From a plasmid, in the sequence record OW967251.1: a DNA stretch of 64,000 nucleotides. One strand, 5' to 3'. Shown in pieces: positions 10,701-16,700 of the stretch. A program made the position numbers. Every line of letters starts with the position of its first letter. The first letter of the stretch is position 1.

Positions 10701-13700
10701 CAGTGGCCAGTCGCGTGTAGTTGTTCCCGCGCGACAGCAGCATGCGCTCCTGCACACGGCGCTCAACCTCACGCTTCAGCGCTTCTTTATCGCCCATGAA
10801 GCGGCCGGTGGCGTATTCGCGGGTCAGTTGCTGACGCACGCGCGTCTCGATGTCATGACGCTGCCGTGATGCATCCCGCCGTGCAGTATCCCGCTTACGG
10901 CCGTGAGATTTACGCTCAGCCTGATAGCTGCGAAAACGCTCACGCACAAACCGCCACGCTTTTGCGATCAGTTCGTCCATCTCCAGGGGTTTCAGTTTCT
11001 GCTTTTTGCGCTGCAGGTTTTCCCACTCCACACGGCTGCGGCGCGCGGCCACCACAGCCACCTCAGAAACGTCAAGCGCGGAAAACAGAGCCGGGGTGAA
11101 GGTGATATCGGTCGGGATGTTACAGCCGATCTGCGGGTCATATTCAGTCTGATAGGTGATGAGCCCCAGCTCGGCCAGAAACTTCAGCGCCCGGGTGGCA
11201 CGGCTGACTGACAGGTTGCCGCTCCTGGACTCGGTGGCCAGTCCACACTCGATGGCCATATTGGTAATCGAGCGCTGCACGCGATTGGCCAGCGGATCAT
11301 AGTGAAAACACATTGCCTGCAGTAGCGCGTCAATTGCACGCCGGCGCAACAGGGGTGGCATCCTGTGCCGCTTACCCAGCGAACGCAAAAACGCCACATG
11401 AATGGAAAAATCAAAACGGGACGTGAAGCCTTCGGCTTTCGCCATCAGCTTACGGCAGAACGGCAGGGTCTTTTTCCCTTCACGCGGCGTGAATACCGGA
11501 TTCGGGTTTTTAACCTGTGAATAGTGGTTTTGAAGGATATCAGTCACCGCTTCCTGCGCTTATGTTGCACGGAAGGAGCGAATGACACAGAAACTGATCT
11601 TGAAGTTTTCTGAGCATGTACATATACTCCCCGCATAGAGCAACACGTTCTATGCAGTTTATGAAGGCCCCGTTAATCTTTTCCTTCCGCCAAGATTGAA
11701 GAAGATTATCGGGGTTTTTGCTTTTCTGGTCCCGGGTAGATACCTCATCAGAACCAGTTCCCTGCCACCTTAGGGCGTGGCACACCCAAAATTATTCAGA
11801 CCATCAACAATCTAGCACTCAATAAAAACATGATCAAGAATGTGAAGTCTTTACATCTATAAGACCACGTTCTGTAAGCTCTCGCTCGAGGAGTTTCTCG
11901 ATAAACTGGGCTTGTGTCAGACCTTCTTCCTCACAAACCGCTATCATCACGTCCTTTAGTGGGTTTTTAACAAAAACCTTAACTTCTTTATGAGTTTCGC
12001 GTTTCCGCGCAATTGCAGCAAGCTGCCTCTCACTGGCAGACATTGGCTTACCTTTCCGGTATGCACGTTTTGCATTCGTAGAGGAAGTGGTTTTATCTGC
12101 TGAACGTGACATTTATCGCTCTCCTGACACCTCAGAAATGTCTTCGGAACGGAGGATACTACAGAACTCTCAGATCCTGCAAATCAATAACTTACTTTCA
12201 ATTTGCAAGAGATCCTTTCTAAAATTGTAATTTGTATTGGCGTACAAATTTCAACTGAATGAGATGCCTATGTCCTCTTTTAAGAGAGTGGGATAGTAGC
12301 CCCATCCTGAACTAAAAGTGAGTACCTTCAGGGGCAAGGCTTAAGAGATAAGATACGAGCGACGGGCGGACCAGGCGCTTTAGCATGGACGTAAGTAAAC
12401 CGTATTGATGCTCGTTTTATGTCTGAGGAGCATTAATAAGCCCGTTTCCAGTCCGTACCCTGCGACCAGCGAGTCAACCAGTGCTGCAGATAGCGTTGAG
12501 CAACGACTGGATCATCCCATACGACAAGCACGTTCTCTGAATTTACCCGATCAGCGGCGCGGGTGTAGTTAAAAGACCCGACTTCAATATTGCGGCCGTC
12601 GGCAATGATGACTTTGTCGTGCATGATTTTGTACTGCGACACTGTGCGAACCGGGATGCCGGCATTGACCAGAAGATTCATGGCCGCCAGGCTCGCCTGG
12701 TTTTGCTTGCCGGTATTGGCTTTCCAGTCCAGAACCACTTTCACATCGACACCACGCCGCTTTGCCCTGACAAGCGCACCGGCGACTTCAGGCGAGGTAA
12801 AGGAATACCCCATCAGTCGGATTTCCTGCTGCGCAGAATCAATAGTCTTCAGGACCAACTGCAGAGCCGTTCCTTCCGGAGAATATCCCGTCTCGATGCT
12901 GGCGGCATACACGGCCGGAACAGGTGCACACAAAGCCAGGCTGATAAGCCCCGACAGACAACATTTGTGGAGTGTACGGTTCATTTTTTTCACAGTATTT
13001 CCTTAACGGGTGTTTAAGAAACGCCGGGAGCGGGGGAAACTGGCTTTTCCCCGTTCCCGGGGTTGGACAACGACGCCATGCGGAGGCGTCAGGATTTTGT
13101 GGTATGCCGAAACCAGTAGCAGACGGGTCCGTCGCCGGTATCGTGGACAGAGCCCAGAAACCATCCATCATGGGGTCAGTTTGGAGACAGGAAAAAATAA
13201 TGGATATCTAGTAATTATTCTTCAAATCCAGAGTTAAAAATGTGCGGATTCATCACCTGAACCCGCACATCCAATCACGATTTTTAAAACCTGGCTTACC
13301 GTTAGCAGCTCGCCATTCCTTTACGGTTTTAACAATTCCTTTCGCCGAAGAATCTTCGCCTACCTTAGGCTTGAAGATGAGGTTCCAACCAGCAGGATGC
13401 TCTGTTAGTTGGGCGAACGAATAAATAGCATCATCGTTCTCTTTGTCAGTTGGAAAATCAGCAGCGATTATTTTACTAACAAAAGCAGTAAATTCTTCTT
13501 CCGTAAAATCTGAAATTTTATTACCAGCCATTTTATTTTCCTTTATGTGTCTCAATATGATTTTTAGGTGTTAGCGCCTTAATGTTATCGACATCCATAA
13601 CAGCCCCTCCTTGAGATATTTCTTTTTCGTGGTGTAATTCAATTTTAACACGTTTCCCTACTGATTCTAAAAAGTCCGCAGTAGGTGCCCTTCCAGCTTT

Positions 13701-16700
13701 CATCTGATTAATATCAGCTTCACTAAATTGCTTGCTTAGTGCAGAATCGTCAGCAACCGCTTTCCAGAACGCCCGACGGGAAGAATCAAAACTACCGAAA
13801 GTCTTCCCGCGTAATTTATCCGCAATCTGGGAAGGAACAGGAGCACCATCCCCGGTACTGGCCCCCCCCATCCAGTTATTGCCAACGTTCTGCCCTTTGC
13901 CGCTTACTGTACCGGGCATGTTACGAGGGCTACGGTACATCACATACAGCGGTTTTAGGCCGGACTCCGGTGGAAACACCAGAATAATATCGTCAAAATC
14001 GAGGTCATCCGCTACCGGCGTCACGGTTTTATCTGTAGCCTGTGGCGCCGAAATCTGATCACCGGTATGCAGAATACGCTCCGGTAGTGGTACCGGCCCG
14101 CTTAGCGTCAGTGGTCCATTTGCACCAAGTGCGTCAGCCGGGCTGACAAAAATAGTTTGCGCCGGTACATCTGCGACAGCGGGAAGAGTATAGCCCCAGT
14201 AGCCGGTTTCCTTATCCAGTACAGCACGAGCGACCTTCACGGCACCGGCAGTATTGGTTTTGACCAGCTGAACATCCAGAATGCCGCTATCATTCATAAC
14301 CAGACGGCCACGAACCGGCATACTGACAGATGTTTTCTGATCTGCTGCTTTATTCAATGCCGCGGTATCAGGCAGACCAAACGCATCGCCAGGCATCATC
14401 GAACTGATATCCCGACCGGGCACCATATCACTACCGACGCCAACTGATTTCGATAACACAAGACCGGCAATGGTTAATGCTACTGGGTTAGCCACCACAG
14501 CGACACTTAACGTCGCCAGAGCCTCGCTGATGAAAGCTCCCAGGCTGGCCGCAGCATCAGCCGACAGAGTAAAACCTCCACGTGACGCAGTTGACCAGGT
14601 CAGAGGAATAGCAAAAGGTGCCGCTGTAGCCGGGATACCCCTGACAGCCTGAATCTCTGAAGATTTCAGTTTATCTGCGGCTGTACAACGGGCCTGCAGC
14701 GCTTTTGCTTTTTCAGCAATGGCTCTGGCCTCCTCAGCGGCTTTCGCTGCTGCATCAGCCTGTCGTTTTTTTTCTGCCGCAGCGGCGGCTGCTGCTTCCG
14801 CCTCCTGGCGTTTACGTTCAGCAGCGGCGGCTTGTTCTGCGGACGCTAATGCAGCCTGGGCAGCCTGACGGCGCGTTTCTGCAGCATTATAGGCAGCTGA
14901 TGCCTGCAGACTGGCCTGCTCAGCGGCCGTTGCCTGACTGGCAAGACTGGTAGCAGCATTTCGTTTGTTCACCGCATCATTCTGCGCTGCATCAACCTGA
15001 GCTTTTGTGATCCCAGATGGATAGAACCGGTATCCCCAGTGGTCATGCTCTTTATTCGAACTGATAACCTCCCATTTTTGGGTACCGTATTGGCCGTTAT
15101 TATTTAGAGTGAGGCCTTTAATGCTTTGCTGCAGATCCTGATATTTTTTCTCAGCCTGAGTTGCTACTGGTACGGCATCGATAGCTTCCTTTCGCTTATT
15201 CTTCGCTGTATTAAGGGCATTATCTGCCACTGTTTTCAGGCGTGATGCTTCAGCAGTCGCCTGATTCAGATTATTACGCGCATCAGGAACAGTTTGATGT
15301 TGACCTGCAGCAGCCGCAGCAGAAATCGCATTCTGACGTTCTTTTTCAGCAGCGGCGGATGCCGCTGCTGTTTTCGCTGCGAATGCTTTTGCAGCCTCTT
15401 CTGCTTGCTGTTTTTCCTTAGCTACCTTCTCCGCTCGTGCAGCTTTTTCTGCTTCTGATGGACCTACAGCCACAAAAGCGCGGGTAGTATGTTCGTTATT
15501 ACCAGCCCCGGATGATCGGTTTTCCCAGTATCCCATCTGCCCGTTATGCATAACAAGAGACTGTCCCTGTGGCCCCTGCCCACCCTGACTTCCGCCATTA
15601 CCGGTAGAAGAACTGCGGACACCATCGAAGCCACTGACAGTTGTTGAGCCTTCCTCAGAGGACACAGTGTGAATCTGCCCCCGAATATCCGCCATATACC
15701 CACCATTACCATCACTGCGAATATTCGAGACATCTGATGCCCGGATTTGCGTCCCACCAAAACTATTAAACTGATTAGCCACATCACTGGCAGAAGGAGA
15801 GCTAAGGCCTGAGCTCGTAGCACCCTCACCGTTATAGTTAAATCCACCAATCACACATTTCCTTCTTTTGTTTTTTTTGTTTTCCAATTTTCTGAAATAC
15901 GGCGTGCGGTTTATTGCTTCAGGACAGCTATCCGGAGGCTGTTATTAGTTCTCTGCCACGCCAGTTACTGCATATAAAAGCATGTATTTATATACAGTAT
16001 TTTGATGCTGCTCTTGATATACCAGCTCTGTCAATATGTCGTGGTTAACAATATTTTTATTTATTTTCATTCACTTAAAAATAACAGCAGAGGTGGACCC
16101 GAGGCAGAATGCGGATCATCAGAAAGAAAAAAAACGATTTGAGCTCTGATTCATAGCCCGATAGATTACTTAGTTCCCCCGAGTGCACGATAAAAAAGAG
16201 AGTATTTCTGATGCCATTACCTGAGCGAATGAAACCCGCACGGGTCACCCGTAAACAGATGAAAGAACTGGTCAGTCAGCTGAATGGCATTCTCGATCAC
16301 ATCGATAACGGGATGGACGAAAACAATGAAGAACTAAAACAGATGATGGCAGACTGGAATGCACAGGTCGTCATACCCTGCGGGTTCTCTGATTTTCGTG
16401 ATTTTTCATCCTGGACAAGTGCACTAGATTTCACCAGGATGGCGCTTAATCAGGAAAAATACCTTGATGACTTTACATGGACAGAACTGAACGACGTTAT
16501 CAACTTCATACGCAAAGCAGAAGGTAGTGCATCTGACCACAGCTATGTACTCCAGTTACTGGAGATTAATTTCAGGGCAAACCCACTGGATCTCATCTAT
16601 CACCCTGACTGCTGGTTCAATGATGAAGCATTGTTTCATGCTCGGCTGACTACCGAAGAAATTGGTGGCTACCTGATGAAAAAATCAGGTCGATGGCTCA

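Follow-up and report, generated by a model that had tools for sequence, protein, structure and literature searches.

A klebicin B-family nuclease bacteriocin module without its lysis gene on an IncFII(K) plasmid

The DNA considered here is a stretch of 64,000 nucleotides (nt) from a plasmid (sequence record OW967251.1), analysed as a whole and referred to below as the window. Its minus strand carries a two-gene operon, consisting of a toxin gene and then an immunity gene, that has the features of an HNH DNase bacteriocin of the klebicin B family: a DNase domain, a Pyocin_S domain upstream of it and a co-oriented Im-family gene downstream (Table 1). The toxin is composed, from the N- to the C-terminus, of a disordered N-terminus, an Ala-rich helical region, a Pyocin_S domain associated with inner-membrane translocation and an HNH DNase. 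In the protein started from a GTG codon, Gly and Ser make up 37% of residues 1–124, and residues 125–409 contain 30% Ala and 9% Lys. Both C-terminal domains are complete according to Pfam, with Pyocin_S (PF06958) at residues 511–650 (E 4.3e-33, model positions 1–139 of 139) and Col-Pyo_DNase (PF21431) at residues 659–782 (E 4.9e-47, 1–124 of 124) of the longer, 784-residue reading. The HNH motif HHEKEISQGGAVMDVDNIKALTPKNHIETH (residues 741–770; catalytic pattern HH...N...H...H) is intact. In a PDB search, the DNases of pyocin S2 and ColE7/E9 matched the toxin at E 1e-41 to 1e-33. A preliminary description of the locus had proposed a klebicin- or S-pyocin-like HNH DNase bacteriocin of 784 amino acids (aa) with a Gly/Ser-rich N-terminus, an Ala/Lys centre, a Pyocin_S segment and a C-terminal DNase; composition, Pfam domains and the PDB matches to KlebG, pyocin S2 and ColE7/E9 agree with that layout, the length being 773 aa from the GTG and the strand, which it left unstated, the minus strand.

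Table 1. Features of the operon and of the captured module, in window coordinates
Feature	Position	Strand	Basis and remarks
Junction filler, 27 nt	13172..13198	.	Between module and IncFII(K) backbone
Immunity–kbl spacer remnant	13199..13235	-	Alignment and blastn end points
Intrinsic terminator hairpin	13236..13272	-	15-bp stem (13272-13238), 5-nt loop containing the immunity stop codon, U run
Immunity gene (kbi-like)	13253..13531	-	92 aa; PF01320, E 2.5e-29 (Pfam)
Toxin gene (kba-like)	13533..15854	-	773 aa from GTG; Pfam, PDB matches, 68% identity to klebicin B-like protein
Promoter-like site TTTAGA-18-TAAAAT with TG	13642..13671	-	Consensus scan; inside 3′ end of toxin gene
In-frame TTG extension	15855..15887	-	Without Shine–Dalgarno sequence; not conserved in klebicin B-like upstream region
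LexA box 2, ATGCTTTTATATGCAG	15983-15968	-	13/20 against 20-mer consensus; 2-nt overlap with box 1
LexA box 1, CTGTATATAAATACAT	15997-15982	-	16/20 against 20-mer LexA consensus
-35 hexamer TTGACA	16029..16034	-	Read from sequence; conserved in klebicin B-like promoter
Divergent 181-aa gene	16211..16756	+	Im-fold domain at about residues 82-160, helical N-terminal extension; part of module
Right-hand module end	16757..16966	.	blastn to small plasmids, L002 and backbone plasmids

The comparator used for klebicin B was NZ_CP147637.1, whose toxin is annotated by PGAP as "nuclease bacteriocin klebicin B" and which stands for the kba-kbi-kbl operon of the pKlebB-K17/80 type. This comparison bears on the start codon of the toxin gene. 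The long open reading frame (ORF; 15887..13533) yields 784 aa when read from a TTG, whereas a GTG at 15854, 33 nt downstream, has AAGGA 5 nt upstream of it, a Shine–Dalgarno sequence that had already been remarked on in favour of the GTG. The PGAP start is the same GTG (product WP_004178051.1, 773 aa), the klebicin B-like gene has its ATG at the aligned position, and the alignment with the KlebG chain (PDB 9hn1_D) begins at the residue after it. The GTG is the better start, and the in-frame extension from the TTG is probably 5′ untranslated region (UTR) rather than coding. In many RefSeq records, NZ_CP028784.1 (L006) and NZ_CP020842.1 (L007) among them, identical toxin DNA is annotated as two products, a 672-aa "S-type pyocin domain-containing protein" and, in an alternative frame (window 15464-15850, minus strand), a spurious "hypothetical protein" of 128 aa. 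This is an annotation inconsistency, the sequence being the same.

The immunity gene follows the toxin gene at a TAA-A-ATG junction. The Im-family assignment and the junction were described correctly at the outset; the spacer, given then as 2 nt, is 1 nt. The immunity protein matches Im9/Im2/Im7 at about E 1e-22. Compared with the alleles of small Klebsiella plasmids treated below (85 aa), the terminal A-run of the window gene is one A shorter, and the resulting frameshift replaces the last two residues by NRDWMCGFR, the last 9 of the 92 aa, and puts the stop codon in the loop of the terminator hairpin. Helix III (residues 46–51; window 13378-13395, minus strand) reads NLIFKP, as against DLIYYP in Im9 and DLIYHP in the klebicin B Im. 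All three of the Im9 residues D51, Y54 and Y55, which form the conserved hot spot of DNase binding, are changed in the window protein. In the plasmid pKPN1482-1 (NZ_CP020842.1), the immunity gene is interrupted in its 5′ part by ISKpn26, at the sequence CTAA (window 13476-13479), and the toxin gene is intact, a state that should be dangerous unless the toxin is silent.

Upstream of the toxin gene, a TTGACA hexamer is followed by a weak candidate -10 (CAGCAT, at an 18-nt spacer) and, beginning 31 nt downstream of the hexamer, by two LexA boxes. No other site in the 64-kb window matches the 20-mer LexA consensus as well as box 1, whose score of 16 was reached in 2 of 50 shuffles. Box 2 is not significant on its own score, and is backed by its register and its conservation in the klebicin B-like promoter. 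The bare pattern CTGT-N8-ACAG, with one mismatch allowed, gave 23 matches in comparison with 20.7 expected and is not above chance, and a generic consensus promoter scan missed the SOS promoter because its -10 is weak. Conservation with the promoter of the klebicin B plasmid extends to the -35 hexamer, both LexA boxes and part of the 5′ UTR, in a region otherwise about 73% identical. The tandem LexA boxes proposed earlier are thus corroborated by the 20-mer scan and by conservation, and control of the operon by an SOS promoter with overlapping LexA boxes is well supported on this sequence evidence.

Several other observations concern the control region. A 31-nt block of the 5′ UTR, GTGGCAGAGAACTAATAACAGCCTCCGGATA (15959-15929, minus strand), is fully identical to that of the klebicin B-like plasmid in surroundings of about 73% identity and may be a regulatory element. 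The promoter-like site within the toxin gene, close to its 3′ end, is, by analogy with the organisation of ColE operons, a candidate constitutive promoter for the immunity gene. In NZ_CP028784.1, LexA box 1 is interrupted by ISKox3, flanked by a target duplication of 8 bp that corresponds to window 15986-15993; the SOS promoter is thereby cut off from an otherwise identical toxin gene.

The immunity gene ends in a hairpin (fold energy -27.7 kcal/mol, z -5.3), and a lysis lipoprotein gene, which in a classical toxin–immunity–lysis operon would be found downstream of the immunity gene, is absent there. A lipobox scan of the 64-kb window gave no lysis-gene candidate, and in tblastn of the window neither colicin lysis proteins nor the kbl product had a match better than E 0.1. 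Ten further large ORFs at both window ends contained no lytic domain in a Pfam scan; the domains seen were those of transport, transposase, TerB/BrxC-D/helicase, methylase, PsiA and ParB-like proteins, and Pfam coverage of the ORFs of the central transfer region was limited to the neighbours of TraI. The 110-aa ORF that lies 3′ of the hairpin (12839-13171, minus strand) was considered as a lysis gene and rejected, since it has neither signal peptide nor lipobox and is backbone DNA. The statement that the operon, unlike classical colicin E operons, has no lysis gene directly downstream therefore stands.

The reason first given for this absence, namely that the operon ends in the hairpin, does not stand, although the hairpin itself is present. 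In alignments with small plasmids and the klebicin B plasmid, agreement continues through the immunity gene, the hairpin and 37 nt past the U run. Because the same hairpin lies between the immunity and lysis genes of lysis-proficient, kbl-bearing relatives, it is read from these alignments as the inter-genic terminator of an ancestral three-gene operon, and it is no mark of a two-gene design. Homology to the kbl-bearing relatives ends at 13199; the relatives go on for 31 nt, including a Shine–Dalgarno sequence, to the ATG of kbl. A query made of the spacer and kbl matched 856 plasmids, 84 of them with at least 80% coverage. The plasmids with full coverage among the matches listed are 3-6 kb in size, and in every large plasmid sampled positions 1-43 of the query alone were matched. 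The breakpoint is common to the large plasmids, and one ancestral event is therefore indicated. On this alignment evidence, the lysis gene was lost by truncation at the edge of a captured module.

Export by a dedicated secretion system instead of lysis, for example as an effector of a type VI secretion system (T6SS), would remove the need for a lysis gene, but this explanation is barely credible. It draws on the match of the C-terminal part of the toxin to an NCBIfam model of a T6SS DNase effector and on the occurrence of the Pyocin_S/IMT domain in T6SS nuclease effectors as well (PMC12927319). However, the score against that model (NF047924, VPA1263 type) is 162 bits, far below the cut-off of 900 that membership demands, and the C-terminal ~165 residues alone align. 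Moreover, Pfam scans showed no T6SS genes or adaptor domains in the window, the nearest relatives are lysis-gene operons on ColE1-type plasmids, and the N-terminus is colicin-like, first disordered and then helical. The assignment as a T6SS effector was rejected on score and context.

The captured module is about 3.8 kb long (window 13199-16966). Homology to backbone plasmids that contain no bacteriocin (pKp5-1 of K. variicola and a pKpQIL-sized plasmid) stops at 13171 and resumes at 16965, where DUF6404 and finO are found. The slot, a variable cargo site, lies between nuc (PLD) and DUF6404/finO on the IncFII(K) plasmid, and other genes occupy it in other plasmids. That the toxin–antidote pair adjoins the replication region of a large plasmid is also what would be expected of a plasmid addiction module acting by post-segregational killing. 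This alternative is very unlikely, considering that the promoter is LexA-repressed and not constitutive, that complete import domains would be useless for killing from inside, and that the same flanks occur in ~2243 PLSDB plasmids as against ~400-500 with the full toxin, two module-less backbones having been inspected directly.

Homology to small ColE1-type plasmids of Klebsiella spans window 13199-14136 and 16416-16966. Their copy of the final 600 nt of the toxin gene is 98% identical to that of the window, and their immunity gene shows no difference in the first 250 nt compared; they also have kbl, with a product beginning MKKLLFLGVVTVSVVLAACQVNNVRDTGGG... Four of them (L003, L004, L005 and L028) are ColRNAI plasmids of 3.3-7 kb that keep the immunity gene and kbl, frameshifted in L003, and in which a toxin stub (the last ~600 nt) is joined to the 3′ part of the 181-aa gene. 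The small plasmids examined have a deletion of window 14137-16415, which takes away the SOS promoter, the greater part of the toxin gene and the 5′ portion of the 181-aa gene. This deletion, together with the loss of kbl from the large plasmids, therefore points to complementary losses from one ancestral arrangement; the predicted ancestor would be an intact small plasmid with the 181-aa gene, a complete toxin gene, the Im gene and kbl. In the DNase region, the window and the small-plasmid copy differ by five synonymous and two non-synonymous changes.

The small plasmids raise the question of whether kbl could act in trans, releasing the toxin from cells in which a small ColRNAI plasmid with an identical immunity allele is co-resident. 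Such release is improbable. The existence of 3-7 kb Klebsiella plasmids that combine kbl with the 98% identical toxin fragment and the matching immunity gene speaks for it, as does the occurrence of the kbl region in 84 plasmids. On the other hand, the three small plasmids examined in this respect have neither the SOS promoter nor the 5′ end of the toxin gene, and L003, which is among them, has a frameshift in kbl. In INF278, a carrier of the large plasmid, the sixth plasmid is unrelated and has no kbl, and the kbl plasmid CP024513.1 is from another strain.

The explanation favoured here, and held to be highly probable, is a single capture event in which the IncFII(K) slot received a nuclease bacteriocin module of the klebicin B family from a small ColE1-type klebicin plasmid, with kbl lost at the boundary. 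The boundary would lie 31 nt upstream of kbl, so that the promoter, the toxin gene, the immunity gene and the inter-genic terminator were kept. By the colicin paradigm, LexA is predicted to keep the promoter shut through the two overlapping boxes, and DNA damage would give rise to a toxin–immunity transcript ending at the hairpin. The toxin would be produced as an inactive complex with the Im protein. Entry into a target Klebsiella cell presumably involves an outer-membrane receptor and the Ton or Tol system, the disordered N-terminus and the helical region serving to cross the outer membrane; the Pyocin_S domain would then take the toxin through the inner membrane, a role described for this domain (PMC12927319; PMC5536347), and the HNH DNase would degrade the chromosome. 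Residues 99-103 of the 773-aa protein read SLVMH, a candidate TonB-box-like sequence.

Without kbl, release of the toxin is expected to be indirect, chiefly through lysis by co-induced prophages or else because the induced cell dies. Work on colicin Ib in Salmonella favours the same route of release. A prophage-type release has also been proposed for nuclease bacteriocins without release genes (PMC5536347). Deployment of the toxin is probably weak, because a producer without kbl is left with no exit route of its own, and persistence of the module may be due largely to its immunity function and to hitch-hiking with a successful plasmid.

Functional decay is an explanation that overlaps this one. 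According to it, there is practically no deployment of the toxin, and the locus persists through protection of the plasmid's host, by the immunity gene, from the klebicin of others, the carrier being an immune non-producer or "cheater". Decay in this sense is possible, if clearly the less probable account. It is consistent with the loss of the lysis gene, with the small plasmids that keep the immunity gene and kbl after most of the toxin gene was lost, and with the presence of the ISKox3 transposase within the match in the nine best rows of the similarity search (H1-H9), of which one (H1) was inspected in detail and has the insertion sequence inside LexA box 1. It is also consistent with klebicin B-like strains in which expression was low, inhibition almost absent and kbi always kept (PMC10269471). 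Against it, thousands of assemblies share an uninterrupted 773-aa ORF of the same sequence, ~390 PLSDB plasmids have it at full length, and the changes in the DNase region are mostly synonymous (5 vs 2). The intact ORF could, however, stem from recent clonal spread and not from selection.

Several points weigh against the capture of a functional klebicin module as set out above. Compared with its klebicin B-like counterpart, LexA box 2 has two additional mismatches in the core, and the promoter has a weak -10. Expression of the toxin, killing and release are predictions from the sequence, and release mediated by prophages is put forward by analogy only. Tight binding between the Im protein and the DNase is assumed, given a helix III that reads NLIFKP. 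The direction of capture, from small plasmid to IncFII, is deduced from the presence of kbl in the small plasmids, and no small plasmid with a full-length toxin of the exact window allele was found, the copies examined lacking window 14137-16415.

How does the module compare with known systems? The comparisons with klebicin B, the pyocins and colicin E9 that the preliminary description had called for place it closest to klebicin B, at 68% identity to the klebicin B-like protein, with pyocin S2 and ColE9 matches in the DNase. With the klebicin B operon it shares the domain order, a homologous promoter with TTGACA and tandem LexA boxes, a junction of the TAA-A-ATG type, an Im-family gene and the hairpin after the immunity gene. 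Against the NZ_CP147637.1 protein, the identity of 68% overall is distributed unevenly, at 42% in the N-terminus, 81% in the helical region, 50% in the next segment, 66% in Pyocin_S and 79% in the DNase. As the N-terminal 124 residues are only 42% identical, the use of receptor or translocator may differ from that of klebicin B. Unlike the klebicin B operon, the window has no kbl, contains the extra divergent 181-aa gene and belongs to a large conjugative IncFII(K) plasmid.

KlebG, or Klebicin G (PDB 9hn1/9hn2, chain D), a close relative with a solved structure, is matched over its full length at E 6e-282, with 62% identity overall. The first ~630 residues of this chain are 96-98% identical to the klebicin B-like protein, and its last 134 score the same as the ColE9 DNase domain; this leaves a chimeric construct or a naturally occurring E9-type klebicin as readings of the chain. 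A search of the available literature for klebicin G or KlebG found no paper.

ColE operons are under SOS control by two overlapping LexA boxes and have a terminator after the immunity gene. The window operon shares both features with the colicin E2/E7/E9 operons, as well as the HNH DNase (E 1e-37 to 1e-33) and the Im family. In contrast to them, it has no lysis gene, and helix III of its Im protein reads NLIFKP, not DLIYYP; the colicin E chains gave no PDB-search match to the toxin N-terminal of Pyocin_S. With the S-type pyocins S1/S2/AP41/S8, the toxin shares a Pyocin_S domain and an HNH DNase (E 4e-41 for the pyocin S2 DNase). These pyocins are chromosomal, have a two-gene toxin–immunity arrangement without a lysis gene and are controlled by PrtN/PrtR, not by direct LexA boxes. 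Unlike in the pyocins, the two-gene state of the window operon is secondary, left by the truncation of a three-gene operon. The toxin is pyocin-like in its domains and is not a pyocin, being encoded with LexA boxes on a Klebsiella IncFII(K) plasmid.

A published counterpart is klebicin B-b of strain MS6097, in which kba, intact and klebicin B-like, has ~67% identity to klebicin B and is accompanied by kbi and by no kbl (PMC10269471). The likeness is one of description; the breakpoint and the plasmid context are absent from that paper. The copies with truncated kba, kbi and kbl reported in the same paper correspond to the small plasmids seen here.

The divergent 181-aa gene is annotated as hypothetical everywhere it was seen. 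It is taken to belong to the module because the small plasmids keep its 3′ part beside the toxin stub; the klebicin B plasmid does not have it. The 181-aa protein gave no match in Pfam or NCBIfam and no PF01320 match even at E 10, so that it does not reach the gathering score of that family, and BLASTP against the module's own Im protein found nothing. It has 87 homologue clusters, the named ones being from several Enterobacterales genera; some homologues are chromosomal orphans, and one lies directly after an Im gene remnant. The profile of the family matches Im9, Im8, Im2 and Im7 over Im9 residues 4-59 at E 3e-4 to 0.02, and the match includes the helix III motif DLIY(W/Y)P. In a Foldseek comparison, Im8 and Im9 were aligned with the protein at TM scores of 0.63-0.65, with E-values that are not significant. 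Helix III reads LDLIYHP in the 181-aa protein, WDLIYHP in the klebicin B Im and WNLIFKP in the module's own Im. A PF01320 match of the homologue P0076 was discarded as evidence on the family, since it arises from a read-through fusion with an upstream Im remnant and not from the 181-aa domain.

With a four-helix Im fold and the helix III motif D-L-I-Y-x-P, the 181-aa protein is assigned an Im-fold domain with a helical N-terminal extension, as judged from the family profile and the fold comparison, which alone revealed the domain. We tentatively suggest that the gene represents an unannotated class of extended Im-fold proteins that travels with nuclease-bacteriocin modules, occurs as an orphan across Enterobacterales and may bind HNH DNase domains. 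Possible roles are a second, perhaps broader immunity, or that of a partner handling the toxin in a lysis-less operon.

Two further observations concern the surroundings of the module. In GCA_023538995.1 (CP097423.1, L016), a 5.5-Mb, chromosome-sized contig, the same traX-finO-module-PLD segment is located beside a Tn3-family transposase; from this arrangement, part of the plasmid is judged to be integrated into a chromosome, and a similar chromosomal case was mentioned for KPNIH12 (PMC5536347). In the window itself, three co-oriented genes at 3401-9243 (plus strand) look like a defence-type cluster; their products are a TerB_N/TerB/TerB_C protein of 776 aa, an ATPase of the BrxC/BrxD type with 438 aa and a 731-aa DEAD-box helicase.

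The bacteriocin–immunity pair is already known, annotated and common on Klebsiella plasmids. A 3-kb region has matches in 925 PLSDB plasmids; Klebsiella accounts for 850 of these, conjugative plasmids are in the majority, and identity is at least 99% in 415. Those that were examined are of the IncFII/IncFIB types. Full-length toxin genes occur in ~390 PLSDB plasmids, and the assembly collection has 8053 blocks in which the exact 773-aa protein is indexed. RefSeq product names are "klebicin B-related nuclease bacteriocin" and "bacteriocin immunity protein". All ten contexts shown contain finO, DUF6404, the divergent 181-aa gene, the toxin, the Im protein, the PLD nuclease, RepB and RepA, and none has a lysis gene. 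Klebicin B-like variants 66-68% identical to klebicin B were described by Le et al. (2023; PMC10269471), including one with an intact kba and no kbl and many in which kba was truncated and kbi and kbl were retained; expression was low, inhibition was almost absent in strains with klebicin B-like genes only, and kbi was kept in every strain. Nuclease bacteriocins without lysis genes have also been discussed, with release mediated by prophages suspected (PMC5536347).

What the present analysis adds is, first, a cause for the missing lysis gene, which would be a single truncation at the edge of the module and no different design of release. Second, two complementary states of decay are distinguished, with toxin and immunity genes on large IncFII(K) plasmids and immunity gene, kbl and toxin stub on small ColRNAI plasmids; these states fit the retention of immunity while costly lethal production is lost. 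Third, it provides a lead on an unannotated family of Im-fold proteins. Given the wide distribution of the plasmids in clinical K. pneumoniae, release of the toxin or its failure bears on competition between strains and on proposals for the therapeutic use of klebicins, since carriers of either plasmid type would be immune.

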